Positions 27,243 to 63,931 of a DNA stretch of 64,000 bases are shown here, in pieces. The stretch is from a virus (taxonomy: Duplodnaviria; Heunggongvirae; Uroviricota; Caudoviricetes). Every line of letters starts with the position of its first letter. The stretch's first letter is position 1. The translations under genes and the position numbers were made by a program. The stretch spans positions 64,134-128,133 of the IMG/VR virus record IMGVR_UViG_3300025316_000590. One strand, given 5' to 3'. The notes beneath the pieces are model-generated. The model searched no databases, was not told the DNA's origin, and saw only the letters and a program-made list of their open reading frames with translations.

Positions 27243-27263
27243 TATCATGCGAACCGCGTGCCG
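27243..27263 (-). promoter_or_regulatory. sigma54-type (-24/-12) promoter
   Basis: CGGCAC-GCGGT-TCGCATGATA on the minus strand. Confidence 0.75.
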
Positions 27264-27423
27264 AAACACGCAAAACCTGAATTTCATCACCAAGCTCCTC
27301 GTCGGGAGCGAAGCCGTACCGTTCCTCAAATGCTGCGAGGGCTTCGCGTTCGGCGGTCTTCAGGCTTTCGGAGGTGATCACGACTGCCCGCCCGTTGCTG
27401 CGGCATAGGTATCGGGGCATGGT

Positions 27424-27798
27424 TCATTCTCCGCACGGGCACATCGGGCCGCAAAGGTGGTCGGGGCCGCTGGTGTTCGCCTGCGGCAGGTCATACTCAG
27501 TGTTGCGGGATCCGTCCGCGTTCCAGGCGGTCGCCTCCTGCATGGCCAAGGCCCGGTCGCTGCATACGGCGGCCAAGGCGTGCCAGCCGCAGTCGTTGCT
27601 GCGGGCCATTTCATCCAGAGCCTGGAAGTTCGCCCCGATCACCGGCAGTTCATCGGTCTGCACGCACAGGCACTGGGCGATGCGGGCGATGGCAATTCGC
27701 AGCCGTATCGCGCTGTCCTCGGCGTTATTCACCGCCACTTCGGCCAAATTGCCGCGGGCCAGTTCACGCATACTTCTGCCTTGGGGAAATATGGACAC
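27424..27798 (-). CDS. Hypothetical protein
   Basis: AGGAG RBS; lies in the operon. Confidence 0.55.
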   Translation of the reverse strand: MSIFPQGRSMRELARGNLAEVAVNNAEDSAIRLRIAIARIAQCLCVQTDELPVIGANFQALDEMARSNDCGWHALAAVCSDRALAMQEATAWNADGSRNTEYDLPQANTSGPDHLCGPMCPCGE

Positions 27799-27976
27799 GG
27801 TAGTCTCCTAATGAGTTCGGTGGTTGACGGTCAGCTTTCGTCGCGGGGCTTTCCGTTTTGGTTCATCGTAATGGCTTGGAGCGATATCGAAAAGCGTCCG
27901 CTGCACGGGGGTGTCGTCGAGGCACGCTCCGATCTCACGATCAAAGCGTTCGACGCTTTCTTTCGGTGGCCAGGGC

Positions 27977-28462
27977 TTATTCATCTTTGGGCTCCTCGGT
28001 TTTGCCGTAGTACTGATCCTGCTCGGCCTCGGTCATATCATGAACGTGGATGGGCGTGGCCGAGGTGATATCCCACGTCCAGTCGCCGCTGCCGACAACC
28101 TTCAGTTGGCATGGTCCGTCACGGTGTAGGGTCTCGTGGCCGGCAATATCGGCTTCGTCTCCGTCCGTGGGCACAACGTCGGGGCCTGTGGGCTGCGGGG
28201 CAACGGTGGGCGTCCACTTGAAGCTATCGTAGAACGGGGCCAGCGTGCCCGGAACACGGCGATACACGCCGATCAGCCGCCCGCCGTCCTCAAAGCTCTC
28301 GACATACTCGTGCAGTTCGGTAGCGGCTTCAGGACCATCGCAGTAGAACAGCCGCACGTCGCCGATGATCAAAGCCAGGCCGATCCATTCGCAGTTGGGA
28401 TCGAAGTCGTAGCTGATGCCTTTGTATGTGCGGTCTTGACCGCGAACATGAATGCTTCTCAT
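27977..28462 (-). CDS. Hypothetical protein
   Basis: ATG at 28462 abuts the upstream stop codon. Confidence 0.55.
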   Translation of the reverse strand: MRSIHVRGQDRTYKGISYDFDPNCEWIGLALIIGDVRLFYCDGPEAATELHEYVESFEDGGRLIGVYRRVPGTLAPFYDSFKWTPTVAPQPTGPDVVPTDGDEADIAGHETLHRDGPCQLKVVGSGDWTWDITSATPIHVHDMTEAEQDQYYGKTEEPKDE

Positions 28463-28463
28463 A

Positions 28464-28853
28464 TCAGTCGATTTCCTCTCCGGTAAAGTGCTTAGTGCAG
28501 TACGGGCACGTCCAGTCCGCACCGAGGGGCCGGTTGACGAACGGGTCGCCTTCCATCGGGCAGCAGAACTCGCAGCCCGAGTATGCTGCGGGACGACCGT
28601 GGCAGACACTGGCTTCAGCACCGTGGCGGACACCGGCTTCAGCACCGTGAGCAAACGCCACCAGTGTATGAATCCAGTCGCGGCTAATCGGCCTGCCAGT
28701 GTTGCGAACGGCAGTGATATCGATACCGTTGCCGCCGTTACGTGCGACCTTAGCGAACGTCATATCGGTATATGTACGCCGCAGGGCGTTCAGGGTGGAT
28801 TCGGTGACGGCGTCGTTGCCGCCGTTGTAAATAGTGATCGGGGGTCGCGGCAT
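28464..28853 (-). CDS. Hypothetical protein with C-terminal Zn-ribbon-like CxxC pairs
   Basis: CEFC and CPYC motifs; AAAGGA RBS; 24-nt tandem duplication at ~28596-28649. Confidence 0.6.
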   Translation of the reverse strand: MPRPPITIYNGGNDAVTESTLNALRRTYTDMTFAKVARNGGNGIDITAVRNTGRPISRDWIHTLVAFAHGAEAGVRHGAEASVCHGRPAAYSGCEFCCPMEGDPFVNRPLGADWTCPYCTKHFTGEEID

Positions 28854-28856
28854 GGT

Positions 28857-29024
28857 TTATCCTTTCAGGTATCCGAGATCGTCCTTGGGCCAGTCGTGGC
28901 GGGCATACAGGGCTTGCCACCAAGCCGCCGCCTCCTTCTCGTCGGCGGGCTTGGGCTTCCAGCACTTGTCGCACGAACAATTCACCGCAGCGTGGCGTTC
29001 GGGCTTCTGTTTGTTCTTGGGCAT
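28857..29024 (-). CDS. Small hypothetical protein
   Basis: AAAGGA RBS, just downstream of a promoter motif. Confidence 0.55.
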   Translation of the reverse strand: MPKNKQKPERHAAVNCSCDKCWKPKPADEKEAAAWWQALYARHDWPKDDLGYLKG

Positions 29025-29047
29025 GATACGGTTCCTTTCGGTATCCG

Positions 29048-29068
29048 TATCATGCAATCGCCGTGCCC
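29048..29068 (-). promoter_or_regulatory. sigma54-type promoter
   Basis: GGGCAC-GGCGA-TTGCATGATA. Confidence 0.8.
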
Positions 29069-29935: not shown

Positions 29936-29999
29936 AACAGCCTGGAGGTTGGCCCCTCCAGGCTGTTTGTATTCTAGCCCAACTTGCGGAAAGCGTCAA
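29936..29999 (-). promoter_or_regulatory. sigma70-type promoter plus 13-bp hairpin leader
   Basis: TTGACG-17-TAGAAT (29994-99, 29971-76); hairpin 29936-29948/29955-29967. Confidence 0.75.
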
Positions 30000-31018
30000 G
30001 CTTGGTTTTCCGCCATTCGTAAGAACGTAGGAAAGCGTGGAACTCCTCGGTCGGTCAACTCTTGATAGCTGTAAGTGATGCGGCTGCCGATAGTCGGTGG
30101 GTTCGACCGCTGTTCGTCTGAAAAACCAGACCCGACCGAAAACGTCTGGCCGTCTGGCATCTCGCAAATCACTGCACCCATCACGCCTCGGTGCCTGCCC
30201 TTGCCCTGGGTGATACCGACGACTCTGGCTTCCATATCATGTCGGGTCTTCACCTTCAGGAGGGTCGTGCTGCGGCGGGCTTCGTACTTCGACTTGGGCT
30301 TGCGAAGCATCAAACCTTCCGCACCCTGAGCTTCGACCGAGGCGAGGTGCTGCCGCAGGTGTTCTTCGCCCTTGCAGCGAACCTGTCGAACCACCTGGGC
30401 CGGTCCTTCGCCTTGGACGACCTCGCGGAGGTATTCGTACCGTTCCTCAAACTCGCCGCCGTGCTTGGGGGCGTCGAAGACCATGTACTTGATCTGATGC
30501 CATTCCTCGCCGGGGTTCAGGCGACGGACGATGCTCATGGTTTCCTGAAACCGCTTGCGTCCGAGCCAAAGTTCGCCGTCCAGACAGACGTTCTTGGGCA
30601 TCGCGTCTTTGAACCACTGCGGGGCGTGGAATTCGTTGCCCAGGCGGCTTATGAACTTCTTGCCGTCCCACCAAGCCCGAACCCCGTCGAGCTTCTCGCT
30701 CATGTGCCATCCAGTCGGATCTTGGACACCGTCCCACTTTTCGGCCAACAGTACGGGCGGGGCTTCGACCGTTGGTTTTTCGATAGCAGGCCGTAACGTA
30801 GTACTTGCGATTGATGCAGTAGCCAAACCAAGACGTTCGTTTTCGGAAGCTTCACCTCGGAATTTCTTCAGGTGCTTGCACGTCCTCTGGTCTGGATGCA
30901 GATGTTGGTTTCTCCAGGACGGACAGGAGCAACTGTAGGCCCCGTTCGTGTTCTTAAGGATGTACGGGTTTTTACCCGATCCTTGCATGGTAGTTGATTC
31001 GCCGTTTTTCAAGTTCAT
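29996..31018 (-). CDS. ATP-dependent DNA ligase with N-terminal SWIM-like Zn finger
   Basis: Motif I SEKLDGVRA; LDGELW, YMVFD, EGLMLR and LLKVK; C-terminal OB-fold; N-terminal YSCSCP..TCKH. Confidence 0.93.
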   Translation of the reverse strand: MNLKNGESTTMQGSGKNPYILKNTNGAYSCSCPSWRNQHLHPDQRTCKHLKKFRGEASENERLGLATASIASTTLRPAIEKPTVEAPPVLLAEKWDGVQDPTGWHMSEKLDGVRAWWDGKKFISRLGNEFHAPQWFKDAMPKNVCLDGELWLGRKRFQETMSIVRRLNPGEEWHQIKYMVFDAPKHGGEFEERYEYLREVVQGEGPAQVVRQVRCKGEEHLRQHLASVEAQGAEGLMLRKPKSKYEARRSTTLLKVKTRHDMEARVVGITQGKGRHRGVMGAVICEMPDGQTFSVGSGFSDEQRSNPPTIGSRITYSYQELTDRGVPRFPTFLRMAENQA

Positions 31019-31054: not shown

Positions 31055-31075
31055 CATCATGCATCTTACGTGCCA
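31055..31075 (-). promoter_or_regulatory. sigma54-type promoter
   Basis: TGGCAC-GTAAG-ATGCATGATG, overlapping the HNH stop codon. Confidence 0.7.
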
Positions 31076-32270: not shown

Positions 32271-32291
32271 TATCATGCGAACGCCGTGCCA
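32271..32291 (-). promoter_or_regulatory. sigma54-type promoter (leftward member of divergent pair)
   Basis: TGGCAC-GGCGT-TCGCATGATA. Confidence 0.8.
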
Positions 32292-32386: not shown

Positions 32387-32407
32387 TGGCACGCCGTTCG
32401 CATGATA
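32387..32407 (+). promoter_or_regulatory. sigma54-type promoter (rightward member of divergent pair)
   Basis: TGGCAC-GCCGT-TCGCATGATA. Confidence 0.8.
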
Positions 32408-32477: not shown

Positions 32478-33173
32478 ATGCCCGCTACGATTAGAAGCTT
32501 TCTGGACACGCAGTTACACGCCGGCTGCAACATCATCAGCCTTGCCTACATCAGCAAGAAGACAGCAGGCGACGGCCTTTTGCAAAAGAGCCGAGCGACC
32601 GGCCAGCCGACCTCCGAGGTTTATCTGATGGGGGTGCAGCGTGAGGCCCAAGGTCGGTTTTTCCTGGGGTTCGACTACGCCAAGAACGTCGACGCCCAGC
32701 GGGAACGCGAGGGCAAAGCCGGCGACCCCTACGTGGTCGAGGGCCTGTGGTGCGACAAGGACGGCAACGCCAAGGGCCGCCACTTTGCCGACTACCCCAG
32801 CTTGGTTTTCCACGTTGACCGGCCCGCCAGCGAGTACCTTTACACGCGACCGTACCAGGACAAACAGGGGAGGATTCAGAAAGAGTACAGCGTGTGGCGG
32901 GATATCGCTACCCAGCGGATCCTGACCGCCGAAGAGGTGGCCGACCTCAAGGCCAACTACCTGCCCAAGGTCAGCCCGAGCAAGAAGCAGGATTTGGCGA
33001 AGGAAATCCCGGTGCGGGTTTTCAAACTGGAAACCATGTTCGCCCTCAAGGTCAAGGGCAAGGGCGAGTGGGTTTACCTTACCGAAGACCGCCCGAGCCG
33101 AGCCGAGCGAGTTGTGGCCCGCCGCCGCATGCAAACCGCCAACGCCGAACTTCGGCCCACCTGGGAAATCTGA
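32478..33173 (+). CDS. Hypothetical early protein
   Basis: AAGGA RBS; first gene after the promoter motif; ends RPTWEI*. Confidence 0.75.
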   Translation: MPATIRSFLDTQLHAGCNIISLAYISKKTAGDGLLQKSRATGQPTSEVYLMGVQREAQGRFFLGFDYAKNVDAQREREGKAGDPYVVEGLWCDKDGNAKGRHFADYPSLVFHVDRPASEYLYTRPYQDKQGRIQKEYSVWRDIATQRILTAEEVADLKANYLPKVSPSKKQDLAKEIPVRVFKLETMFALKVKGKGEWVYLTEDRPSRAERVVARRRMQTANAELRPTWEI

Positions 33174-33310: not shown

Positions 33311-33985
33311 ATGCCGTACAAAAACCCTGCCGACAAAAAGGCGAATGACGCACGACGTGCGGCGGCTATCCTTGCTGACCCTGTTCAACGGGAGAGACGC
33401 AATGCACGGCATTGTAAGAACTATGCCCGCCTCAAAAAGAACTCATCTTGGTGTAGGAAACGAGCCGAGGATTCGCACCGCCGCAACCAAACCAAATACT
33501 ACGCTGATGTGGCGGCATCCCGCAAGCTCGTGCGGGAGCGGTTATCGCAAATGCGGGTGGCCAACACAGGCAATATCAACGGAAAAACCAAGGCGTATCG
33601 CCAACAGCACCGGAAGCAAATCAACGCCAGTACCAAGGCATGGCTGGTGGCCCATCCTGAACGGGCCAAAGCGTACCGGCGGGCGGCACATCTTCAGGCA
33701 AAATATAAGATGACCCACAAAACATACGAGGAGATGTTTAACGCTCAGGGTGGCGTATGTGCTGCGTGCGGTCAGCCTGAAACAAGTAAACGGCTAGGAG
33801 TGATTCGGCACATGCACGTCGATCACGACCACGCCACCGGCAAGGTGCGAGCCCTATTGTGCCACAGATGTAATTCCGCCCTTGGACTTCTCAAGGACGA
33901 CCGAACACTGGTGGCTAACCTGCTACTCTACATCAGCAAGTACCAACCCGTCACCCGCCGAAGAATTCAAACTGTTGGCACATGA
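33311..33985 (+). CDS. Endonuclease VII-like HNH endonuclease
   Basis: QGGVCAACG..HVDHDHATGKVRALLCHRCNSALG. Confidence 0.9.
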   Translation: MPYKNPADKKANDARRAAAILADPVQRERRNARHCKNYARLKKNSSWCRKRAEDSHRRNQTKYYADVAASRKLVRERLSQMRVANTGNINGKTKAYRQQHRKQINASTKAWLVAHPERAKAYRRAAHLQAKYKMTHKTYEEMFNAQGGVCAACGQPETSKRLGVIRHMHVDHDHATGKVRALLCHRCNSALGLLKDDRTLVANLLLYISKYQPVTRRRIQTVGT

Positions 33986-33996
33986 CGTGCATGATA
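33976..33996 (+). promoter_or_regulatory. sigma54-type promoter
   Basis: TGGCAC-ATGAC-GTGCATGATA, overlapping the stop codon. Confidence 0.7.
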
Positions 33997-34214: not shown

Positions 34215-34217
34215 GCT

Positions 34218-34479: not shown

Positions 34480-34500
34480 CGGCACGCCGGTTGCATGATA
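34480..34500 (+). promoter_or_regulatory. sigma54-type promoter
   Basis: CGGCAC-GCCGG-TTGCATGATA. Confidence 0.8.
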
Positions 34501-34776: not shown

Positions 34777-35298
34777 ATGCCGGAAAGACGCAGAATAACG
34801 AGCGTGCGGTTCATACCGCTGACGCAGGGCCGGTTTGCTATCGTGGATGCAGCCGATTACGAATGGCTGACGCGATTCAGCAAGTGGTGCTACAACGGAA
34901 CCAAAGGCTATGCCGTCAGCAGCCTAGTTCGCCGGTTGTCTCGGGCCGGCGAATCGTATCAGATGCACCAGATCATTATGCGGGCTCCTCCCGGCGTAAG
35001 CCCAGACCATAAGAATGGCAACAAGCTCGATAACCGCCGCAGCAATCTGCGGCTGGCCAACGGTACGCAGAATATGGCCAACCGCGATCTACAGAGCAAC
35101 AACACGACCGGCTACAAAGGTGTAGTTAGGCATCGTGGTAAATTCCGAGCCCGCATCGGCGATGGACTTCGCAAGGGTGGTCGGCATCTTGGCATATTCT
35201 TGACCGTTGAAGAAGCAGCTTTGGCCTACAACACGGCGGCTGTTGAAATGTACGGTGAGTTCGCTTGTTTGAATTCGGTTGGCACGCGATTCGCATGA
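34777..35298 (+). CDS. HNH endonuclease with AP2 domain
   Basis: IPLTQGRFAIVD, DHKNGNKLDNRRSNLRLA, and AP2 motif GYKGV..FRARI..HLG.F..EEAALAYN. Confidence 0.92.
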   Translation: MPERRRITSVRFIPLTQGRFAIVDAADYEWLTRFSKWCYNGTKGYAVSSLVRRLSRAGESYQMHQIIMRAPPGVSPDHKNGNKLDNRRSNLRLANGTQNMANRDLQSNNTTGYKGVVRHRGKFRARIGDGLRKGGRHLGIFLTVEEAALAYNTAAVEMYGEFACLNSVGTRFA

Positions 35299-35300
35299 TA
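35280..35300 (+). promoter_or_regulatory. sigma54-type promoter
   Basis: TGGCAC-GCGAT-TCGCATGATA, overlapping the HNH stop codon. Confidence 0.8.
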
Positions 35301-35546
35301 CTTCCATCGTAAACGGTCAGCGTAAATCCTGCGGGCTCCCAAGCCTTCGGGCAGCAAAACAAGGTGGGCATACCCCACCGAATACGCTGACCGCCGCTCA
35401 AACCAGCAGCGAAGGAATGCTAGAATGTCTGAACGAGAAAAAAACGCCTGGAACGAGATCGACGAACAAGCCGCCCGCGAGGGTTCGGCCCGCCGCCGCG
35501 AGTTGCACGGCCCCGAAAACGGCCCCGAAGATGATGGAGACGCACC

Positions 35547-35810
35547 GTGCTAACCGTCGAACTCAAACACGAACGAGCGAAGGGCCGAACCGCCGAGGTC
35601 GCCACCCTCCGCGAAGCATCCGAGACCGTTCGCCTATACATCAGCTACTTTAGCCTTGGGAACGGCAACTGGCAGGGCGGGCTGGTACGCCAGAACGGCA
35701 AGCGGAAGTACATGATCTCTTACAATGGTCGTGTCTGGAAGTATGAGCCGAAAGGCTGGACGAACACGACGCCTGAAATCACTGGTGAAGAACTGGACAA
35801 ACCATTATGA
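35547..35810 (+). CDS. Hypothetical protein
   Basis: ORF in the early operon. Confidence 0.6.
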   Translation: MLTVELKHERAKGRTAEVATLREASETVRLYISYFSLGNGNWQGGLVRQNGKRKYMISYNGRVWKYEPKGWTNTTPEITGEELDKPL

Positions 35811-36160
35811 CCACAGCGACGCAACCGACCCTCGACGCCCGCGGCTGGTTTGACTTCGTCAGCGAGATTCACGAGCAGGTGAAAAAGGCGGGCCGCATCT
35901 ACACGACCGGCCAGATCGCTCGCCGCATCCGGGTCAAAGTCCTGAAGCAGTACCGCGATCAGGGCGACGACGAGATGACCGCCGAACGCGTGCGGCATGG
36001 CCTCGACCGTGTTGGCCCAGGCGGGCTTACCGGAATGATACTGCGATATGTAGAGGGCACCCTGGCCGTGCGAACGCGGGCGGGCGTGATCGATCAGCGG
36101 AACTACCACAACCGCGACGCATTCCTTGCGGCCATCCGAAACCTGAATCCAAGGGCATAG
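35807..36160 (+). CDS. Hypothetical protein
   Basis: ATGA overlap with the upstream gene. Confidence 0.65.
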   Translation: MTTATQPTLDARGWFDFVSEIHEQVKKAGRIYTTGQIARRIRVKVLKQYRDQGDDEMTAERVRHGLDRVGPGGLTGMILRYVEGTLAVRTRAGVIDQRNYHNRDAFLAAIRNLNPRA

Positions 36161-36366
36161 TCATGGACGAAGATATCGACGAACTCGATTACGAGTGCCC
36201 GCCGGTGTGCAGCGAGTGTGGCGAGAATCTTTGCGATTCGTGCGGCTGCTGCGGCAACCCGCACTGCGAAGCGTGCTGCTGCCCGCTTGTGGAACGCGAG
36301 GACGACGCGGGAGAATGAGCCATGAACGAATATGAAAAGTAATTCGCCTCGTTATCCCTAGCGGAG

Positions 36367-36720
36367 GTGATGGAGCTTCGGAAGATCAAGACGAAGCTGA
36401 CCGATCAGTACCTGCATGAGGAACTGCCCACGGTGCAGGGCTGGTGTAACAAGTGCGATGCCTGCGGGGCGGTCGGATACCAAGACCCGCCCGTGATGTA
36501 CACCGATCCCGAGTCTGGATCAGTGATCACGTTGCAGGGCCGTATTTACAACAAGACGATGTTTCGCGCGATCGGCGAGATTTTATGCGAGAAGTGTTTC
36601 GTCCGGGAGTATTACAACGGACCGACCAACGACGTGCCCAAGCGGGGCAACCCACACCTGACGACACCGCACTCGCAGTGGAGTTACGACGGTGGTAGAT
36701 TTGGAAGCGGAGAATGGTGA
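36367..36720 (+). CDS. Zn-finger-like hypothetical protein
   Basis: CDAC and CEKC motifs; GGAGG RBS. Confidence 0.6.
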   Translation: MMELRKIKTKLTDQYLHEELPTVQGWCNKCDACGAVGYQDPPVMYTDPESGSVITLQGRIYNKTMFRAIGEILCEKCFVREYYNGPTNDVPKRGNPHLTTPHSQWSYDGGRFGSGEW

Positions 36721-36721
36721 T

Positions 36722-37054
36722 ATGAACCACGAAGAATTCCTCAAGTTTCTTGGCAGCGAGGCCCGACCCAAGTGTGGCCGGTGCTGGTGGCGGGAGGGCC
36801 GCAAGTGCTACAACGAGAACCTCGGTGCAGTACCGGGCGAGGGTCAGGACATCACCGCTGAACTGTGGGCTACCTGCTCTGCCACACCCGCGTACCAGAA
36901 CAGTCGGGCGACCCTGGCTCAGGCCCTGCCGAACATCTTGCTGGCCGTCGCGGCACAGACGCAGCCCGCTGAAAAGGTTGTCCAGTGCTGCGAAGCTGTC
37001 GAGTCGGCATACGATTCGCATGATACCGCTGGTCAGAAAGGAACTGAATCATGA
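36722..37054 (+). CDS. Hypothetical protein
   Basis: Lies in the operon. Confidence 0.55.
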   Translation: MNHEEFLKFLGSEARPKCGRCWWREGRKCYNENLGAVPGEGQDITAELWATCSATPAYQNSRATLAQALPNILLAVAAQTQPAEKVVQCCEAVESAYDSHDTAGQKGTES

Positions 37055-37509
37055 CTATCGGAACCCCAAGTGTCTGCGAGTGGATTCGCAGCCTGCCGAA
37101 TACTAGCAACGTTCGCCCGTGCCGAGTCACCATCAAGGGCCAAACCTGGGAGGGTGCTTATTACGAGGAGGAACGCGAGTGGCAGCAGGGCATGGACGGC
37201 GTGCAGCGAGGTGAACACAAGGCGGGCGATAAGTACGTCATCCGCCGCATCTACCTGCTCGGCGACCGGCCTGTGTTCAACCGTGAACGTGTCTGCTTCC
37301 CGTCGTATGAGGGCCTGGACTGGTACGTTTCGGGCTACTGCGTCACCTTCAAGCCCGAGCAGAAAAAGTATCATCCCTTCGGCAAGAGCTTTCAGATCAT
37401 GCCGTGGGAGATCGAGGGCAAGCCCGACTGCAAGATCGACAGTCACGAACTGCACCCGTACCTGCGGGTGCCGATGACGGTCGAGTTCATCGAGGAGACC
37501 GCGTCATGA
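37051..37509 (+). CDS. Hypothetical protein
   Basis: AAAGGA RBS; ATGA overlap. Confidence 0.65.
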   Translation: MTIGTPSVCEWIRSLPNTSNVRPCRVTIKGQTWEGAYYEEEREWQQGMDGVQRGEHKAGDKYVIRRIYLLGDRPVFNRERVCFPSYEGLDWYVSGYCVTFKPEQKKYHPFGKSFQIMPWEIEGKPDCKIDSHELHPYLRVPMTVEFIEETAS

Positions 37510-37844
37510 CATGCCCCAACAAGCACCCCGAAGGCCCGGTTTGTCCGACCTGCGGCGGATCCTGTGCTCCGTCCGGAGTCGACAGAGGATCGTGGGTTCA
37601 CTTCCCTGTGACGGCCAGCGGTCGCGTGATCGATAGACTGGCCATCGAAGGTCATGGTGCGATTCAGGTGGACGAGTCTCCCGACCGCGAGCCGCCCATC
37701 ATCGTCCTCGCCGGCCCGATCAAGTTCTGGTGGCAGGAAGGTCAGTGGGATAGCCTGCGGCATCAGGAATACGTGCAGTGGCGGGACGCAGTGCGGGTGG
37801 CCTTGGTGAAGGCCGGATTCGCCGTCTATTCGCCACAGGTCTAG
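37506..37844 (+). CDS. N-terminal half of a split nucleoside 2-deoxyribosyltransferase-like protein
   Basis: IVLAGPI...ALVKAGFAVYSP; continues as 38330..38572 if 37836-38341 is removed. Confidence 0.7.
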   Translation: MTCPNKHPEGPVCPTCGGSCAPSGVDRGSWVHFPVTASGRVIDRLAIEGHGAIQVDESPDREPPIIVLAGPIKFWWQEGQWDSLRHQEYVQWRDAVRVALVKAGFAVYSPQV

Positions 37845-37870
37845 ACATTATGCCCTGTATAGCCTATACT
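37842..37870 (+). promoter_or_regulatory. sigma70-type promoter of the inserted HNH gene
   Basis: TAGACA-17-TATACT; the TAG is also the stop codon of the upstream half-gene. Confidence 0.7.
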
Positions 37871-37874
37871 ATGT

Positions 37875-38333
37875 TTGGAGGGCGTAAGTATGCTATGCAG
37901 AGTATGCAACGAGCGAGAGGTTCCTGAAGGCCACAAACGGAACAGGAATTACATTTGTAGCCAGTGCCACTACGGACGATACAAGGAAAAGGCACAAATC
38001 CTAAATCGAAGGAACGGTAAACGTTACCGCAAGGAGTTGCGGGAACGTATGTTTGATGCTTACGGCAGGGAGTGTGTTTACTGCCACAGCACGACGAATT
38101 TGCAGTTCGATCATACTAACGGTGACGGTTGCCGCAAAACGCGGGGATATGATACGCGGCAGTGGTTTCTGATGCTTATTGCCGCAGGATTCCCGCCTAG
38201 CTGCCAAGTGGTGTGCGGGCAGTGTAACGTAGCAAAACAGAATATGACCGATGCTCAGTTCCGAGCCTGGATCAAGATGGTATATCACGCTATTCACGGC
38301 GTGGAACGGCGACGCATACGGAGTACTACATGA
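37875..38333 (+). CDS. HNH endonuclease inserted in the NDT-like gene
   Basis: YGRECVYC..NLQFDHTNGDG..CQVVCGQCN. ATG at 37890 is an alternative start. Confidence 0.8.
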   Translation: MEGVSMLCRVCNEREVPEGHKRNRNYICSQCHYGRYKEKAQILNRRNGKRYRKELRERMFDAYGRECVYCHSTTNLQFDHTNGDGCRKTRGYDTRQWFLMLIAAGFPPSCQVVCGQCNVAKQNMTDAQFRAWIKMVYHAIHGVERRRIRSTT

Positions 38334-38572
38334 TCCTTCAACACCGAGCGATCCAGGGCCGCTGGAACGAAGGGCTTCAGCGGATTAACGATGCCGCGAT
38401 CATGAACGCCGACGTCATCGTGGTGCTGACGCCGCGGGACGTGCCCGCCGAAGGAACAGCACGCGAGGTCAAATTGGCGAAGCGGTTCAACATACCAGTC
38501 ATTACCGCCCCACCAGGCAGCGATAGAAATCTCAGCACGCTCGTTGAAAGCTGCCTTGAGGAGGCTCGATGA
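38330..38572 (+). CDS. C-terminal half of the split NDT-like protein
   Basis: HRAI..INDAAIMNADVIVVL..GTAREVKLAKRFNIPV carries the GTxxE catalytic motif; ATGA overlap with the HNH stop. Confidence 0.7.
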   Translation: MILQHRAIQGRWNEGLQRINDAAIMNADVIVVLTPRDVPAEGTAREVKLAKRFNIPVITAPPGSDRNLSTLVESCLEEAR

Positions 38573-39477
38573 ACTTCCACGAGTTCCCACTGTTCTACGT
38601 TTCGGCCAAACGCCTGGGCATGGTTCCCAGAGGCGTCTCATCTGCGGTGTTCTACGCGAACCACTTTCGTGATATGCATTGCATCGGAACATCCGCCGAG
38701 GCTGAAGTGCTGGGCGTTCACCTGTTCATGGAAGGCTGGTGGGCGGAGCATAACCGGCCCTTCTATAACGTGTGGCCTAAGATCATCCCGATGCTGACCC
38801 GCCTCGACCTGTCACAGATCACGGGCAAGATGCTGAAGTCTCCCAAGCAGGTCATGTGTCTGCGGTTCCCGCAGGAAGGAAACCCGTTGACCCGCGACGG
38901 CGTGACTCTGCGGTCGATGCTGGTTGGTCCGGTCAGCACAACCGCAGGTCACCCGGCCTATTTCACGGCACAGGACTACGGAGAAACGATAAGCGGCCTG
39001 CCCGTGGTATCAACGAACTGGGTGCCGCTGCGGCCCGACCAGCCGCTGCTGGAGACCTTCGGCGGTTGCAAGAAGCGGGAATCCGCGATGGACGGCATCC
39101 AGATTCCCGAGGAACTAATGCTAGATGTGTGGCGTCTGGTGTTCACCTTGTCCCTACTGGATGATGATCCCGAATTGATCGAACGCATCGTCCTCGCCGC
39201 CGACCGGAACGACTATGATCGCAGCGGTGACCAGAAGTACGTTGCCAAGGCGGAACGTCGCGGCGTGTTGGGTTGGGATATCGGCAAACGTGTCGAGGTG
39301 ATGCCGCACTATCGCCGCCCGCACCTGGGCCTGCGGTGGACGGGCGAGGGCCGTACCGTGGCCAAGATCGTGCCGATCAAGGGAGCAATCATTCACCGCG
39401 AGGCTGTTCTTCAACAGCCGACCGGCGAGGAAGGGCCGGTGGACGTGTCTAATGATCAACAAGGAGACAAGCCATGA
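38569..39477 (+). CDS. Hypothetical phage protein with C-terminal HYRRPH..W.G.GR motif
   Basis: 302-aa ORF, GAGG RBS. Confidence 0.75.
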   Translation: MNFHEFPLFYVSAKRLGMVPRGVSSAVFYANHFRDMHCIGTSAEAEVLGVHLFMEGWWAEHNRPFYNVWPKIIPMLTRLDLSQITGKMLKSPKQVMCLRFPQEGNPLTRDGVTLRSMLVGPVSTTAGHPAYFTAQDYGETISGLPVVSTNWVPLRPDQPLLETFGGCKKRESAMDGIQIPEELMLDVWRLVFTLSLLDDDPELIERIVLAADRNDYDRSGDQKYVAKAERRGVLGWDIGKRVEVMPHYRRPHLGLRWTGEGRTVAKIVPIKGAIIHREAVLQQPTGEEGPVDVSNDQQGDKP

Positions 39478-39911
39478 ACGACAGCGACGTTAAGTATGTA
39501 GCTGTACCCCGCACCAATCCTGAGATGTACCAGGAAATTCGTGCGAAGTACTATTCCCGCAAATGGTGGATGGCTATTGGATTTGATGGCGAGGACGCGA
39601 TGTCGGTCATGGAGGCTATCGGTGCAGCCGTCGATCTTACCGGAGACGTCGATGGATCCGTGCTGTATGAGTGCCCCGTGGGGATTTACGGAGATGACGG
39701 TGTACCAGAGAAAGATATATTCTGCATCCTGTTCATTCACAAACGGGTTGACTGGAATGCAATATTCCGAGCGTGTCGTCAAAATCGCCTGGATGCGTTT
39801 CCAGAGCAGCCGCCCCAGCAGGACGTTTTGATTCTTAGCACGAGTCTGCATAAAACAGCCATGACTACCTACGATAATGTTCTGAGCTGTTACTCGCATC
39901 TGGACAACTAG
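39474..39911 (+). CDS. Hypothetical protein
   Basis: AAGGAG RBS; ATGA overlap. Confidence 0.65.
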   Translation: MNDSDVKYVAVPRTNPEMYQEIRAKYYSRKWWMAIGFDGEDAMSVMEAIGAAVDLTGDVDGSVLYECPVGIYGDDGVPEKDIFCILFIHKRVDWNAIFRACRQNRLDAFPEQPPQQDVLILSTSLHKTAMTTYDNVLSCYSHLDN

Positions 39912-39944
39912 CGTGAAACGAAACGAGTAGACCAGATTGAGGAT

Positions 39945-40136
39945 ATGATGCGATACATAGTAATTGAGCACAACAGCCGTGACCCGCAGAACCCGAAGGT
40001 GAAGGTGTTCTCAGGATCGAGTGCGAAGAGTAACGCACTGTTATTCGATGACGTATCATCGAACACATGCCAGATTTACTTTGTGAAGGGCGACCTGACC
40101 CTCCAACCCGTAGAACGAAACGGAAAGTCATCTTGA
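39945..40136 (+). CDS. Small hypothetical protein
   Basis: GAGG RBS. Confidence 0.5.
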   Translation: MMRYIVIEHNSRDPQNPKVKVFSGSSAKSNALLFDDVSSNTCQIYFVKGDLTLQPVERNGKSS

Positions 40137-40148
40137 TCGGAAGTACCT

Positions 40149-40825: not shown

Positions 40826-40829
40826 TCAA

Positions 40830-42445: not shown

Positions 42446-42466
42446 TGGCACAGCGTTCGCATGATA
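42446..42466 (+). promoter_or_regulatory. sigma54-type promoter
   Basis: TGGCAC-AGCGT-TCGCATGATA. Confidence 0.8.
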
Positions 42467-42840: not shown

Positions 42841-42861
42841 TGGCACGCCATTCGCATGATA
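42841..42861 (+). promoter_or_regulatory. sigma54-type promoter
   Basis: TGGCAC-GCCAT-TCGCATGATA. Confidence 0.8.
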
Positions 42862-52262: not shown

Positions 52263-53230
52263 TAGAACCTGTCATAATGAGGCGTGTCTGGTTCGCTAGG
52301 AGAAATAACATGCTCACATCCGTGGCCCGCAGACCCATTGACGCTGTTCGTCACCGCCTGATTGTTCGGGTGCGTGAGCTGGACTTGGTTTATATTCCGA
52401 ACATATCATTTAGCCGCGTCAAATCCCGACAGGAGGCACGCATCCTTGCGGATCGCCCGGTAGGACCGCCCGTGAAGGCCGTGAAACCCACACCGGGCCT
52501 GCCTCCGTACCTGCGGGCACTGTACGATACGCCCCTGCTGACGCGGGAACAGGAGGCTCACCTGTTCCGCAAGATGAACTACTTGAAATACAAGACGTCC
52601 CGCCTGCGAGATGATCTTGATTCGCACCGGCCATCCGTGCGGGCCATGCATGAGATTCTGCAATTAGCCGACCAGGCTATGGCCGTCCGCAACGAGATCA
52701 TCACGGCCAACTTGCGACTGGTGGTGAACATCGCCCGCCGGTATGCACACAGCAGCGATGAACTGTTCGACCTGATTAGCGACGGCAATATCTCCCTGAT
52801 GCGGGCTGTGGACAGGTTCGATTACGACCGCGGCTTCAGGTTTTCAACCTATGCGACCTGGGCATTGATCAAGAACTATTCACGCAGCATCGCTGTGGAG
52901 ATTCGGCAACTGGCACGTTTCCGCACGGGCGAGGAGAACCCGCTGGATAACGTGGAAAGCCCGTTAAGCGACCTTCCGCATCGTGTTGACGTGATGCAGG
53001 CCCGGCAGCATGGAATCGCCAAGATGCTTCAGCACCTTGACGAACGCGAGCATTTCATCATTGTCAGCCGATTCGGACTTGATCGCGACGCGATGACTCT
53101 TACGGACGTCGGCAAGGCCCTTGGCGTCGGCAAAGAACGCATTCGGCAGTTGGAGGCCCGAGCGATGGATAAGCTGATGCGGGCCGCCGTAACGGAACGC
53201 ATCGATCCATTCAGTATGATCCAAGTTTGA
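52259..53230 (+). CDS. Sigma-70 family RNA polymerase sigma factor (Planctomycete-like)
   Basis: Region 1.2 PLLTREQE; region 2 NLRLVVNIARRY..FDYDRGFRFSTYATW; region 4 TL.DVG..LGV.KERIRQLE. Confidence 0.92.
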   Translation: MIEPVIMRRVWFARRNNMLTSVARRPIDAVRHRLIVRVRELDLVYIPNISFSRVKSRQEARILADRPVGPPVKAVKPTPGLPPYLRALYDTPLLTREQEAHLFRKMNYLKYKTSRLRDDLDSHRPSVRAMHEILQLADQAMAVRNEIITANLRLVVNIARRYAHSSDELFDLISDGNISLMRAVDRFDYDRGFRFSTYATWALIKNYSRSIAVEIRQLARFRTGEENPLDNVESPLSDLPHRVDVMQARQHGIAKMLQHLDEREHFIIVSRFGLDRDAMTLTDVGKALGVGKERIRQLEARAMDKLMRAAVTERIDPFSMIQV

Positions 53231-58924: not shown

Positions 58925-58945
58925 TGGCACGGCGGTTGCATGATA
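58925..58945 (+). promoter_or_regulatory. sigma54-type promoter
   Basis: TGGCAC-GGCGG-TTGCATGATA, a perfect consensus match. Confidence 0.85.
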
Positions 58946-59143: not shown

Positions 59144-59473
59144 ATGCCCTGGCGCGAAGTGATCACCGACGAGGATACGCCTGAGTACGCCTTGTTCCTG
59201 GCCTTGGACAACCAAGCCTTTATGTTCCGCAGCGTCGATGCCCTTGTGGCGAAGACTTGCCGTCCCGCCGAGTGGATCCGCGAAGTGGTCGCGGCCCACC
59301 CCGATTTGGTTCGCCGTAGCAACGGCCAGCGTGAAACCTACGGGTTGGTCGAGCGAATCGGCAACCTGGAGCCCGCCCCCGTCTCGGCCCATTACGAGCA
59401 GCCGATGGTGAACGACAACCTCGGCGAGGTCGAGGACGAGGTCACCCCGCCCGACGCAGACGGCGAACTGTAG
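59144..59473 (+). CDS. Hypothetical protein
   Basis: AAGGA RBS. Confidence 0.65.
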   Translation: MPWREVITDEDTPEYALFLALDNQAFMFRSVDALVAKTCRPAEWIREVVAAHPDLVRRSNGQRETYGLVERIGNLEPAPVSAHYEQPMVNDNLGEVEDEVTPPDADGEL

Positions 59474-59486: not shown

Positions 59487-59507
59487 TGGCACGGCGGTTG
59501 CATGATA
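59487..59507 (+). promoter_or_regulatory. sigma54-type promoter
   Basis: TGGCAC-GGCGG-TTGCATGATA, a perfect consensus match. Confidence 0.85.
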
Positions 59508-59576: not shown

Positions 59577-60452
59577 ATGAACGCGAATGAGCTGACCTTT
59601 GGTGTTGAGATCGAGACCATTGCGGGCCAAGACGCCCGCAACGCTGGCCTGCGGGTCGGAGCTTACGGGTCGCCAGTTCAGGTTCCCTACCTGCCGCACG
59701 GATGGCGGTGCAAAGGGGACGGCAGCATTAGCTGCAACAACAGCAACCAGAACGCCTGCGAGGTGATCAGCCCGATTCTTCGCGGTGCGGCGGGGATGGC
59801 CCAAGTGGTCGCCGCCTGCCAAGCCCTGCGGGAAAAAGGTCATATCGTCAACACGACCTGCGGCGTCCACGTCCATATCGGATGGGACCAGAGCCGCAGC
59901 GAGGTGAACGCGGAAAGCCTGAAACGTCTCATCACGATAGTGGCATACCTTGAGAAGGGACTGTACGCGATCACGGGCACGAAGGCTCGCGAGCGAGGAC
60001 GCTACAGCAAGCCGGTGCGGCAGTACCTGCGACCAACGCAGGTGCAGCGTCACGCTACCTCCGACCGCTACCACGCTTTGAACCTCGCCAACATTCGGCC
60101 CGGTGGCAAGCAGACGGTCGAGTTCCGAATCTTCAGCGGCAGCATTTCTGCCACGAAGATAGTCGGGTGGATTCAGGTTTGCCTGGGCATCGTCGAGCGA
60201 GCCCAAAACGGCAAGCGATGCCCAGCTTGGTCGCCCAAGCCCCTGCAAGGTGGCTGGCGGAAGAAGGGCGAGGGCGCGGGTGAGTGCGAGCGTCTCCTCG
60301 GCTACCTTGCCTGGGCTGAAGCCTATGCACGGCGGCACGGCGGAAACAAGTACGGCTTGATCGCCCCCGACCTGATTCCTGCCGACACGATCATGGCCGA
60401 GTTTCGCCGCCTTGCCAAACGCTACGATAGCGAGGCCCGCGACGAGTTGTAA
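59577..60452 (+). CDS. Putative amidoligase (Amidoligase_2 / COOH-NH2 ligase)
   Basis: TFGVEIE, DGSI..EVISPIL, TCGVHVHIG and TVEFR. Confidence 0.88.
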   Translation: MNANELTFGVEIETIAGQDARNAGLRVGAYGSPVQVPYLPHGWRCKGDGSISCNNSNQNACEVISPILRGAAGMAQVVAACQALREKGHIVNTTCGVHVHIGWDQSRSEVNAESLKRLITIVAYLEKGLYAITGTKARERGRYSKPVRQYLRPTQVQRHATSDRYHALNLANIRPGGKQTVEFRIFSGSISATKIVGWIQVCLGIVERAQNGKRCPAWSPKPLQGGWRKKGEGAGECERLLGYLAWAEAYARRHGGNKYGLIAPDLIPADTIMAEFRRLAKRYDSEARDEL

Positions 60453-60457: not shown

Positions 60458-60478
60458 AGGCACACCAGATGCATGGTA
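60458..60478 (+). promoter_or_regulatory. sigma54-type promoter (degenerate)
   Basis: AGGCAC-ACCAG-ATGCATGGTA. Confidence 0.55.
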
Positions 60479-60821: not shown

Positions 60822-61436
60822 ATGAAACGCCGAACGCAGCCAGACGAATGTATGACTGAGGGATGCCGCTGCAAAGCCCTGTCGCGGGGCCTGTGCCCGC
60901 CGTGTTACGCGAGAGTGAGCAGGCTGGTACAACTAGGCCAGACGACCTGGAACGTCGAGGTGTCCGCAGGGCGGGCTATACCGGCCCGCGACAACCACGG
61001 AGAAAGCGGGACAAGGCTGCACGATATTTGGGAAGGGATACGAGGCCGCTGCTACAACCGTAACAGTACCAGCTATCGGCACTACGGAGCCCAAGGGATA
61101 CGGATGTGCCGATCATGGCACCGCTACCTGAACTTCAGGGATTGGGCACTGGCGAACGGCTACCGCGACGGGCTGGTATGCGACCGCAAGGACGGAAGGA
61201 AGAATTATACTCCCGGCAACTGCCGGTGGGTTACGCAGGCTGAGAATGTCCGCAACAATTTGAACGTGGAGTGGTTCACGGCCTGGGGCGAAACGAAAAC
61301 GGTGGGTCAGTGGTTTCAGGACGCACGGTGCGTGTTGGATAATGAAAGTACGCTGCGAATGCGGATTGCTCACGGATGGGATGTGGAAAAATCGATTACA
61401 AAACCGGCCAGGGCTTATGGCACGCGAAGTGCATGA
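60822..61436 (+). CDS. HNH-type homing endonuclease with N-terminal Zn finger
   Basis: CMTEGC..RGLCPPCY; RLHDIW.GIRGRCYN..YG.QGI.MC..DRKD..NY.PGNCRWVT. Confidence 0.85.
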   Translation: MKRRTQPDECMTEGCRCKALSRGLCPPCYARVSRLVQLGQTTWNVEVSAGRAIPARDNHGESGTRLHDIWEGIRGRCYNRNSTSYRHYGAQGIRMCRSWHRYLNFRDWALANGYRDGLVCDRKDGRKNYTPGNCRWVTQAENVRNNLNVEWFTAWGETKTVGQWFQDARCVLDNESTLRMRIAHGWDVEKSITKPARAYGTRSA

Positions 61437-61438
61437 TA
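61418..61438 (+). promoter_or_regulatory. sigma54-type promoter
   Basis: TGGCAC-GCGAA-GTGCATGATA, overlapping the HNH stop codon. Confidence 0.75.
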
Positions 61439-61484: not shown

Positions 61485-62165
61485 GTGTGCGGAATCAGTG
61501 GCTTTATCAGTCAAGACGGGCGCGGCCCGCACATCGAAACCCTGAAGAAGATCATTCTCGCGTGCGAAGCACGCCGTGGCGGTCACGCCGCAGGGCTGGC
61601 CTGGATCGATCAGCAGGGTGAGCTTCACGCCTGGAAGCGACCGGGCGAATTCGCCAGCAACAACGGTGCGGACGTCGATCAGGTTGACGGGGCACTGGCG
61701 GTTGTAGCCCATGCTCGGTGGGCGACGCACGGTAACGTCCAGATTAACGAGAACAACCATCCGCACAAAGCGGGTCGCGGCTGGCTCGTCCACAACGGTG
61801 TGGTGCATAACTACCGCGAACTGGCGGCACAGTACAAGCTGGAATTGCAGACCGAGTGCGATAGCGAAGTCCTCGGCAAGCTCATCCAGCACTGGCCTGG
61901 AAGCCTCGCCGACCGAGCCAAGTGGGCTGCGGAGCAAACGACCGGCCCGCTGGCGGTGATGGGCCTTTGGGCCAACCCGGTGCGGCTGCTCTTGGTGAAG
62001 TCGGGCAACCCGCTAGTCTTCTCGCGAGTCAAGCGAGGGTACTACATCAGCAGCGTCACGGACGGGATTCCGGGCGTAGTCAAAACGGTTCCCGACGACT
62101 TCGTTGACGTTCTGCGGTTTCCCACCATCAAAAGCGAGGCCGCGACCGCCGCAGTTACGCTGTAA
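61485..62165 (+). CDS. Class II (Ntn) glutamine amidotransferase
   Basis: N-terminal MCGISG; RRGGHAAG, HARWATHG, HPH, HNGVVHN and CDSEVL. Confidence 0.92.
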   Translation: MCGISGFISQDGRGPHIETLKKIILACEARRGGHAAGLAWIDQQGELHAWKRPGEFASNNGADVDQVDGALAVVAHARWATHGNVQINENNHPHKAGRGWLVHNGVVHNYRELAAQYKLELQTECDSEVLGKLIQHWPGSLADRAKWAAEQTTGPLAVMGLWANPVRLLLVKSGNPLVFSRVKRGYYISSVTDGIPGVVKTVPDDFVDVLRFPTIKSEAATAAVTL

Positions 62166-62224
62166 GTCTTGGCACGATTTAACGTACTACATTTACTCTA
62201 ATTGCGAATCTGTAAGGAGAAGTT

Positions 62225-62464
62225 ATGAATATCGAGACTGAACTTTTGCAGGCAACTGGACAACACCCACGTGGTGCGGAAGAGACCGAGCAGGTCTACT
62301 TGAATCGAATCGCATGGGCTGTCGATGACATGCCCGAGTCGGTGTGGGATGCCTTGTCACAGGATGCCAAGGACTGGTTCAATTCAGCGTCCGATGTTTA
62401 CGATGAGTGTAAGCAGATTCCGGCGGGTGCCGTTCTGCCGACGTTCGACGCGGTTGGATCATGA
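62225..62464 (+). CDS. Small acidic hypothetical protein
   Basis: TAAGGAG RBS; paralogous to the N-terminus of 62992..63399. Confidence 0.65.
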   Translation: MNIETELLQATGQHPRGAEETEQVYLNRIAWAVDDMPESVWDALSQDAKDWFNSASDVYDECKQIPAGAVLPTFDAVGS

Positions 62465-62506
62465 TTTGGGCGAATTCTTCGGCAGCAAGATAAATGGAGC
62501 AAGATC

Positions 62507-62995
62507 ATGAGCAAGTTCAAGTTGTGGCCAGGGCGGGTGCAGACGGTGGTTGGGGTGGTGTTCTACCTCTATCTGATGTTCGTCTGCATTCGCGGCCCGT
62601 GGTGGTCGAAGCTGGTTGCTGTGATCTTCGCCCTGTACGCAGTCAATGTGGTTGCGAGTCTGGCCCTGCACCGCACGGCGTGGTATACGAAGTCCACGAG
62701 CAGGGGTTGGTGGTATCGGTGGGCCTTCCGCCGCCTTCGTTTTAAGATGAAGCAGATCTTACCCGACCATGCCTTGTTGTCTTACCCTTGGGCTATTTTT
62801 GTTGAGCTAGAAATACCTGCGATCTTCGAGCAAGGCGGCCTGCCGGCAGTACGCGAGGCCATCGATGGATGGGGTGAGAAGCAGGAGAAGGCGTTCGACG
62901 CGATGATCCACAAGGTATGCGAGAAGCATTTCGCAACCGAGTCTATACTCGATGACGACTTCGTGCTGACGCCCGACGAGGATGAATCACCATGA
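62507..62995 (+). CDS. Membrane protein
   Basis: Two N-terminal TM segments. Confidence 0.65.
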   Translation: MSKFKLWPGRVQTVVGVVFYLYLMFVCIRGPWWSKLVAVIFALYAVNVVASLALHRTAWYTKSTSRGWWYRWAFRRLRFKMKQILPDHALLSYPWAIFVELEIPAIFEQGGLPAVREAIDGWGEKQEKAFDAMIHKVCEKHFATESILDDDFVLTPDEDESP

Positions 62996-63399
62996 GCGTC
63001 GAAAGTGAAATCCTGGCCGCGACAAACCAGGTTGGTCGCCGCCCGACCGAGGACGAGCAAGATTACCTGAAGCGAATCAGCCAAGCCACGTTCGATCTGT
63101 CACCGACAGTATGGAACCGCATGTCGGAACAGGCTCGCAGGTGGTCTTACGATTCGGTTGTGGCTCAGGACGGAAACGGCGTGTTACCGCCGATGCCCGT
63201 CACGCCGAAGAGCAAGTTTGGCGAGGCCCACATCGAAATGCTTCAGGAGGCCATCCAGCAGGCACTAGACCGCGTGGCCATCGAGTTTTTGACCAGTAGC
63301 GACCGCTTCCGCAACCTCGACCTGAACTTCGACGTGGGTGTAGGTATCACCAGCGGTGAACGCAGCGTGACCTTCAAGGTCGAAGCAACAACCCCGTAA
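62992..63399 (+). CDS. Hypothetical protein
   Basis: ATGA overlap with the upstream gene. Confidence 0.65.
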   Translation: MSVESEILAATNQVGRRPTEDEQDYLKRISQATFDLSPTVWNRMSEQARRWSYDSVVAQDGNGVLPPMPVTPKSKFGEAHIEMLQEAIQQALDRVAIEFLTSSDRFRNLDLNFDVGVGITSGERSVTFKVEATTP

Positions 63400-63501
63400 C
63401 CAACGAACTTCTGCTCCCCGTGCCGAGATGCCTTGGGCGGCATACGGTTGGCGAAAGCCAGCCGACCTCGGCACGGGTATTTAAACAATGGAGACCGTAT
63501 C

Positions 63502-63903
63502 ATGCCCCGCACAGCCGACCTCGCTCCCATGCCCGACGATTGGGCACCCTGGTGTACTGACTACGACCGCCGCCGAGCCTGGGAGCAGCACCTGAAGCTG
63601 ACCGCCGCCATGCAACGCGAGAACGAGCAACTGCGGAAGCACGCCGCGAAGCTGCCCCGTCGCCAGTATATGGCATCAGCGACGACCGGCGAACGCAGCC
63701 TGCTGAACGCTGCGGTGGAGACGTTCACCGATTTCGGCGAGGAGGGCCGCAAGACCAGAATTGGCCAGCACCTGACCATCGCTACGGCCTTAACGCAGTA
63801 CGCCCGCCTGTGGAATACCTATGGGCGGCTTCACGGCTTCCGGGTCTGGCAGGAGGAGACCGAACTGGGCAAACAGCAGCGTCTGGCCCGCCGCCGAAAA
63901 TGA
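63502..63903 (+). CDS. Hypothetical protein
   Basis: GGAG RBS. Confidence 0.6.
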   Translation: MPRTADLAPMPDDWAPWCTDYDRRRAWEQHLKLTAAMQRENEQLRKHAAKLPRRQYMASATTGERSLLNAAVETFTDFGEEGRKTRIGQHLTIATALTQYARLWNTYGRLHGFRVWQEETELGKQQRLARRRK

Positions 63904-63910
63904 ATCCGAA

Positions 63911-63931
63911 CGGCACACGGGTTGCATGATA
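63911..63931 (+). promoter_or_regulatory. sigma54-type promoter
   Basis: CGGCAC-ACGGG-TTGCATGATA. Confidence 0.8.

Follow-up and report, generated by a model that had tools for sequence, protein, structure and literature searches.

How could a virus commit a whole class of its genes to promoters of the sigma-54 (RpoN) type? To our knowledge, these are the only bacterial promoters unable to fire without an ATP-consuming activator, so a virus that relies on them needs a route to promoter opening. The question is raised by a 64,000-nt stretch from the genome of an uncultivated phage (Caudoviricetes; IMG/VR record IMGVR_UViG_3300025316_000590), referred to here as the window, in which the motif GGCAC-N7-GCATG recurs between genes. 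An initial annotation of this stretch had read the motif as a sigma-54-type promoter that organises the early region of the phage. The window corresponds to bases 64134-128133 of the 192,133-bp record, whose ends repeat each other (genome positions 1-130 and 192007-192133), so that the assembly closes into a circle, either closed circular or terminally redundant. DNA sequencing runs containing the phage derive from freshwater, lake-water and sediment metagenomes. Genes were called from codon usage and a Shine-Dalgarno score, yielding 258 genes in the genome.

Occurrence and anatomy of the motif

The repeated motif described in the initial annotation is confirmed. GGCAC-N7-GCATG occurs exactly 19 times in the window, with 4 copies on the minus strand and 15 on the plus strand, against a mean chance expectation of 0.31 and a maximum of 2 in dinucleotide-preserving shuffles of the window. 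The positions first reported proved exact when taken to refer to the 21-mer T-GGCAC-N7-GCATG-ATA. Across the complete genome, the search returned 22 exact copies, and a weight matrix built from these copies identified 25 sites scoring above 18 bits, with none between 10 and 18 bits. The additions made by the matrix only are located at genome positions 30765, 72957 (window 8824) and 101139 (window 37006). The GG-N10-GC spacing is present in 24 of the 25 sites, the weakest (window 8824) having TC instead of GC.

Per-position counts were taken over the 22 exact copies, with the GG doublet set at -25/-24. The upstream part of the core comprises T(-26) in 14 of 22 copies, GGCAC in all 22 and G(-20) in 17, followed by a variable spacer; the -12 part comprises T(-15) in 17 copies, and T or C at -14 and the triplet GCA in all 22. 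The motif T-GGCACG-N4-TYGCA therefore equals the sigma-54 consensus TGGCACG-N4-TTGCW, GG-N10-GC spacing included, and the proposed likeness to -24/-12 promoters extends to sequence, spacing, orientation and placement. In a 2025 survey covering 720 validated promoters, the consensus is given as TGGCAC-N5-7-TTGCT, with the boxes TGGCA and TTGCA, and the TCGC variant appears in its promoter table too, for E. coli glnAp2 (PMC12316311).

Beyond this core, an extension formed by T(-10), G(-9), A(-8), T(-7) and A(-6) is found, each base in 20-22 of the 22 copies. As initially annotated, 16 of the 19 window sites continue to GCATGATA; those without it are at 31058 (GATG), 44913 (GTTA) and 60459 (GGTA). 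Further downstream, 14-15 nt past the C of the GC doublet, a pyrimidine (19/22) is followed by a purine (22/22) and then by GAA. The TAGAAA element noted earlier near the predicted start corresponds to a purine-rich (T)AGAAA or GAAA located 7-8 nt past GATA. Start sites of the E. coli promoters tabulated in PMC12316311 lie 13-14 nt past the C of the GC doublet, a geometry with which the phage pyrimidine-purine step is compatible. On the upstream side, GAATTC or GATTC accompanies 11 of the 19 window sites, the number first given, within about 20 nt. When GAATC is also admitted, the element is found at 17 of the 25 sites, at a variable position 7-20 nt before the GG, and ATTC is present upstream of 13 of the 25 sites, compared with 1.7 expected.

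Placement relative to genes

All 25 sites share the orientation of the next gene, according to our own gene calls. Eighteen are intergenic and the remaining seven fall in the final 50 nt of the preceding gene, so the co-orientation and the intergenic or stop-codon placement first described for the window hold for every site. Sites lie 24-370 nt ahead of a start codon or precede stretches without a called gene. They are concentrated in two regions, genome 91-110 kb and 123-128 kb, and in a small cassette on the minus strand (29.3-30.8 kb). This cassette, situated outside the window between the portal gene and a gene of 3461 aa, carries four copies inside the virion module. The earlier statement that the virion module contains none is thus correct for the window, apart from one copy of doubtful function (8823..8843), and incorrect for the genome.

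Conservation in relatives and strain variants

The portions of relatives that were examined comprise 22 kb, 9 kb and 7.6 kb. In an ENA contig (L094) whose portal protein is 79% identical and whose neighbouring proteins show approximately 77% amino-acid identity, three sites are kept in the orthologous minus-strand cassette. Two of them lie upstream of orthologous genes, and there the motif and the next 20-30 nt align while the upstream flanks do not. A more distant relative, a 21-kb contig (L216), was found by scanning Joint Genome Institute metagenomes with the extended motif, and six phage proteins have homologues on it, with 42-66% identity. The 7.6 kb examined in L216 contain two full sites (TGGCAC..TCGCATGATATGCC), both intergenic and co-oriented with the genes. 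One precedes homologues of the genes that follow the window site 27243..27263. In addition, the L216 homologue of gene 42523..42828 is located downstream of a site, and gene 45926..46528 is 66% identical to its L216 counterpart. Within IMG/VR, no close relative was recovered by the ligase and the extended motif gave single chance matches only; portal relatives in that database (at most 45% identical) displayed no enrichment of sigma-54-like sites in the stretches examined.

Contigs from other lake samples carry cassette-level variants of the phage. Among the 40 of 207 strain differences listed, to which the following observations refer, one variant carries CTGGCACGCCAGATGCATGATAG at the 32387 site, with only spacer bases changed. 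Loose ends or low-support joints occur at motif edges, at 34481 and 45845, from 32411 to 42832 and from 34500 to 45825. Contigs of two other lake samples skip 33186-34444 and 34521-39376; the first of these segments is the endonuclease VII cassette, in place of which 11 other letters are found.

Host lineage

The host probably belongs to a planctomycete lineage, likely Pirellulales, as judged from a sigma factor gene and a transfer-messenger RNA (tmRNA) encoded by the phage. The sigma-70-family protein of the phage is 50-58% identical to Planctomycetota sigma factors, and its best matches among 185,579 species genomes are in Pirellula, Pirellulaceae and Planctomycetaceae. The entire phage tmRNA can be aligned, at 66-71%, with the tmRNAs found in many Pirellulales genomes. 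All five genomes of this putative host lineage that were searched contain rpoN (PF04552, E ~1e-60), together with 12-26 PF00158 matches per genome. Furthermore, TGGCACG-N4-TTGC occurs at about 2.5 times the control frequency in 41 Pirellulaceae genomes.

A few host loci carry a sigma-54-like promoter that ends in TTGCATGAT(A/G). At three of them (L208 at ~560-900, L209 and L213, from the Pirellulales genomes G274, G076 and G032), the DNA downstream is non-coding and conserved, and contains GGGGCCGG repeats and GGA-rich segments. The stretch gave no Rfam match and may be an undescribed sigma-54-dependent small RNA.

Candidate core promoters for host sigma-54 polymerase

Searches of the whole phage genome identified neither a sigma-54 gene (PF04552, RpoN box) nor an activator gene (PF00158, GAFTGA, GESGxGK), which extends to the complete genome the initial remark that no activator is visible in the window. 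The sole AAA+ protein of the phage is clamp-loader-like. Matches to the phage RNA polymerase families PF00940 and PF00623 and polymerase catalytic motifs were likewise absent from the genome, and the four giant proteins of the phage showed no PDB sequence match to any polymerase, leaving room for a cryptic fold.

We consider it fairly probable that the 25 sites are core promoters at which host RNA polymerase with host sigma-54 would transcribe one class of phage genes. The sequence evidence supports this reading well, because the sites match the consensus, are placed as promoters, are conserved in two relatives, occur in a phage in which no sigma-54, activator or polymerase was detected, and belong to a virus whose probable host lineage bears rpoN and many activator genes. 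The sigma-54 interpretation of the initial annotation is thus partly supported. The gene class so driven would include small genes without assigned function, the ligase, endonuclease VII, homing-nuclease cassettes, the amidoligase and the amidotransferase, along with two or more long stretches devoid of called genes. Sigma-54 holoenzyme would bind the sites as a closed complex, and opening would be achieved either by a host activator acting from solution, without a common distal enhancer, or by a phage factor making use of the phage-specific elements. These elements, ATGATA (-11 to -6) and GAWTC/GAATTC (approximately -35 to -45), may aid opening or strengthen the promoter. Transcription would start 13-15 nt beyond the C in the GC doublet, either on the invariant pyrimidine-purine step or immediately ahead of it.

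Several observations weigh against assigning the sites to host sigma-54. The invariant TGATA that follows GCA is no part of the sigma-54 consensus, and the 720-promoter table of PMC12316311, in which many entries are too short to judge, showed no such extension at the -12 box. In the host lineage, the bases after TGGCACG-N4-TTGC are variable among the ~150 Pirellulaceae sites listed, and GGCAC-N7-GCATGATA gave 24 matches against 12 control matches in 301 Pirellulales genomes, with at most one per genome. The phage pyrimidine-purine step lies 15 nt past the C, 1-2 nt beyond the E. coli examples. No k-mer beyond chance is common to the site regions from -245 to -47 and therefore no common distal enhancer is apparent, the proximal GAWTC/GAATTC being the only recurrent upstream element. 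With neither a phage activator nor a distal element, classical enhancer-dependent activation is left unexplained for the 25 promoters. Finally, the near-invariance of the sites is just as compatible with a phage-specific recognition factor.

A host-specific preference for GCATGATA was considered as the origin of the extension and rejected, the extension being essentially absent from Pirellulales genomes. Its rarity in the 301 genomes, set against 22 copies in 192 kb, marks it as a trait of the phage.

Two further promoter classes

The initial annotation regarded the sigma-54-type sites as organising the early region. This view needs correction: the sites do not do so alone and are interleaved with two other promoter classes, giving three in all. 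The first of these, GTGTCTRG, has 35 copies in the genome, 33 of them on the plus strand and many 6-45 nt ahead of start codons, including those of the sigma-70-family gene and the DNA polymerase gene. Copies in the window are at 32305(-), 35731, 40775, 48971, 52284, 53233, 56207, 56840, 57855 and 60479, and the distribution of GTGTCTRG complements that of the sigma-54-type sites. Hybrid promoters are also present: a sigma-54-type site in weakened form (GCATGGTA or GCATGAC) abuts a downstream GTGTCTAG or GTGTCTAC; this arrangement is common to the phage (window 60458-60486) and L094 (15439-15494, minus strand).

The other class consists of sigma-70-like sites, TTGACG-N16/17-TA(G/A)(G/A)AT, which probably make up a host-sigma-70 class. 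They precede the region-2-like gene, the tRNA-Met/tmRNA pair, homing-nuclease cassettes, the CsrA homologue and the HARE-HTH gene, and are found in the window at 29971(-), 31779(-), 34631-34658, 44278-44305, 47087-47115, 56253-56281 and 60776-60804, and in L013 at 2055-2088. A fourth upstream signal was not found by k-mer enrichment in upstream regions. Apart from its sigma-70-family factor, the phage encodes a region-4-only sigma-like protein (genome 160202-160681) and a protein with a weak region-2 match (genome 130127-130651). For these sigma-like proteins, GTGTCTRG and TTGACG..TAGAAT are available as candidate sites, and the proteins plausibly have targets other than the sigma-54-type sites.

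Competing explanations

The strongest competitor holds that host core polymerase is directed to the sites by a phage-encoded specificity factor, or that a cryptic phage polymerase reads them, the likeness to sigma-54 promoters being mimicry or coincidence. Such a factor could be an unrecognised protein, or the sigma-region-2-like and region-4-only proteins in combination. Near-invariance over 20 nt and a TGATA foreign to host-lineage sites are typical of phage-specific promoters, and the products of the phage include three sigma-related proteins, a HARE-HTH protein and four giant proteins (1250-3461 aa). GTGTCTRG boxes, too, show a mild excess of TGAT(A) on their upstream side (12/35 versus 4.7 expected), and the two motifs abut in the hybrid sites. 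A chance match to 11-12 sigma-54 positions with exact spacing is nevertheless very unlikely, and a separation of 9 bp between GGCAC and ATGATA is unsuited to the -35/-10 geometry of the sigma-70 family. Moreover, searches of the giant proteins gave no polymerase motif, Pfam match or PDB sequence match, and the other two motif classes already offer plausible targets for the phage sigma-like proteins. We regard this explanation as rather unlikely.

A related proposal keeps host sigma-54 and dispenses with any enhancer-binding protein: a phage protein, or the ATGATA and GAWTC elements, would replace the ATP-driven activator, which would constitute a natural sigma-54 bypass in a Planctomycetota virus. 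We judge this improbable.

Lower still do we place the proposal that the sites are mainly non-promoter elements, acting either as decoys that tie up host sigma-54 polymerase or as cassette-boundary repeats that promote module exchange. T4-type promoter-early stem-loops (PeSLs) have been proposed to promote the exchange of gene modules at cassette boundaries. Such a role would accord with the failure to find an activator or enhancer, with the several strain-variant loose ends and low-support joints at or beside the motif among the differences listed, and with the homing nucleases and small accessory genes that make up many of the flanked genes. The promoter-to-promoter joints may be repeat mapping artefacts, because only 20-27 letters match on one side, and no stem-loop lies upstream of the sites (mean z = 0.1). 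Strict co-orientation with downstream genes (25/25), short distances to start codons and site-gene pairing kept in relatives despite rearrangement argue for an expression signal.

Three other candidates were rejected: a sigma-70-family -35/-10 promoter, since GGCAC and ATGATA are a mere 9 bp apart, instead of the 16-18 bp between two hexamers, and no conservation is seen at the -10 position that a 17-bp spacer would give; the hairpin promoter of the N4 virion polymerase, which has a 5-7 bp stem and a 3-nt loop, the GCAT/ATGC arms here being complete in only about 7 of 22 sites; and a T4-type PeSL, as the -75..-5 region has no upstream stem-loop and a mean folding z of +0.1. A promoter of a T7-, N4-, phiKZ- or crAss-type phage RNA polymerase is disfavoured, the searches for family, catalytic-motif and PDB sequence matches having detected no such polymerase in the phage.

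Comparison with known systems

Recognition by host sigma-54, the reading we favour, invites comparison with bacterial promoters such as E. coli glnAp2 and pspA. These share with the phage sites the GG and GC doublets 10 bp apart, the sequence TGGCACG-N4-T(T/C)GCA, directionality and a position ahead of genes. They differ in density, the phage having 25 copies in 192 kb and Pirellulaceae only a few consensus matches per 5-7 Mb genome. The phage also adds the nearly invariant TGATA (-10 to -6) and the proximal GAWTC/GAATTC, and its sites have neither a common distal enhancer nor an activator encoded in the same genome.

The initial annotation knew of no phage with this design, yet a precedent exists. 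According to the statement in PMC10914365 that cites Ceyssens 2008, some promoters of Pseudomonas phage YuA depend on host sigma-54, as reported with an rpoN mutant; three such promoters lie in its late region, and the YuA record (NC_010116) marks three '-24/-12' promoter fragments in the region of virion and lysis genes. In our own scan, the annotated fragments matched the sigma-54 consensus poorly. Going by these two sources, YuA, a lytic phage, has no RNA polymerase of its own and no annotated activator and uses host sigma-54 for some promoters, as the present phage probably does. It differs in having three promoters with no common extension, compared with 25 near-consensus sites in non-structural gene blocks here.

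The late promoters of T4 (TATAAATA), which depend on gp55, gp33 and the sliding clamp, are similar in that a short, nearly invariant element marks a gene class and activation occurs without a fixed upstream DNA enhancer. T4, however, relies on a sigma-like protein of its own and on a lone -10-type box, unlike the bipartite host sigma-54 consensus found here, and the gp55-like candidate of the present phage seems tied to GTGTCTRG rather than to the sigma-54-type sites. T4-type PeSLs likewise provide a repeated promoter module between small accessory or homing-nuclease genes, with strains differing by whole cassettes; the phage sites differ from them in having no stem-loop ahead and in being sigma-54-like instead of sigma-70 early promoters. 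Additionally, the T4-like phage protein Htm has an activator-like AAA+ fold without GAFTGA (2026 preprint), a precedent that makes cryptic phage factors of the activator kind conceivable.

Sites and neighbouring genes

Table 1 Sigma-54-type sites and the phage sigma-70-family gene in the window, with their immediate surroundings. Positions are window coordinates.
Feature	Position	Strand	Surroundings
Sigma-54-type site, weakest candidate, TTTCATGGTA, 18.4 bits	8823..8843	+	Virion module, inside possible 775-aa frame
Sigma-54-type site (T-GGCAC-N7-GCATG-ATA)	27243..27263	-	Heads small-gene operon 27029..25296; last gene phosphatase-like
Sigma-54-type site	29048..29068	-	Small gene 29024..28857 starts 27 nt downstream
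Sigma-54-type site, GCATGATG variant	31055..31075	-	40 nt ahead of ATP-dependent DNA ligase gene 31018..29996
Sigma-54-type site, leftward half of divergent pair	32271..32291	-	GTGTCTGG box 13 nt upstream
Sigma-54-type site, rightward half of divergent pair	32387..32407	+	74 nt ahead of 231-aa gene 32478..33173
Sigma-54-type site	33976..33996	+	Overlaps 3' end of endonuclease VII gene
Sigma-54-type site	34480..34500	+	Strongly structured leader (z = -5.2), then HNH-AP2 gene 34777..35298
Sigma-54-type site	35280..35300	+	Heads long series of small genes 35425..41624
Degenerate site GGCAT..GCATGATA, 20.2 bits	37005..37025	+	Gene 3' end; next start codon 29 nt on
Sigma-54-type site	42446..42466	+	Gene 42523..42828 begins 60 nt downstream
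Sigma-54-type site	42841..42861	+	Followed by 367 nt without called gene
Sigma-54-type site	43869..43889	+	Followed by stretch without called gene
Sigma-54-type site	44199..44219	+	Sigma-70-like TTGACG-16-TAGAAT downstream at 44278-44305
Sigma-54-type site, GCATGTTA variant	44912..44932	+	95 nt ahead of DUF6011 gene 45024..45650
Sigma-54-type site	45824..45844	+	85 nt ahead of gene 45926..46528
Sigma-70-family factor (regions 2 and 4)	52310..53230	+	GTGTCTGG at 52284 ahead; no sigma-54-type site
Sigma-54-type site	58925..58945	+	Ahead of gene 59144..59473
Sigma-54-type site	59487..59507	+	73 nt ahead of amidoligase gene 59577..60452
Weak hybrid site GCATGGTA	60458..60478	+	GTGTCTAG box directly adjoining
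Sigma-54-type site	61418..61438	+	50 nt ahead of glutamine amidotransferase gene 61485..62165
Sigma-54-type site	63911..63931	+	61 nt ahead of gene starting 63989

The first 25 kb of the window form a virion module, with a match to major capsid protein E at 2083-3234; outside the window, a 921-aa gene in the virion module (genome 16570-19335; L009) contains an intein with a LAGLIDADG endonuclease domain. Elsewhere in the window, a tRNA-Met is encoded at 47262-47336, a full tmRNA with the tag AKNKFEKAPAFALVA at 47414-47792, a CsrA homologue at 55681-55908(-) and the HARE-HTH protein at 56365-56763. The giant proteins of 3461, 1677, 1559 and 1250 aa are encoded at genome 33366-43751, 19590-24623, 46162-50841 and 3760-7512, respectively (L009-L011). 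Two of the four have a short PI3/PI4-kinase-like match, and the 3461-aa protein contains an InPase domain, which matches the C-terminal portion of a chain from a solved phage portal (9b41_L) as well. Searches against PHROGs gave almost no matches for the proteins of this phage.

Implications

If the sites do serve host sigma-54 polymerase, the phage programme could be tied to the signalling state of the host through a host activator; alternatively, the phage could possess a novel means of unlocking this polymerase. Both outcomes would be instructive about how phages regulate their genes and how sigma-54 works. At 21 nt, the conserved element is short, portable and directly testable in vitro with existing sigma-54 systems. 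What is new relative to the YuA precedent is the scale and the conserved extension, and this phage genome, together with its two relatives, presents a much clearer case than the three weak sites of YuA. It would also add to the very scant knowledge of Planctomycetota viruses.

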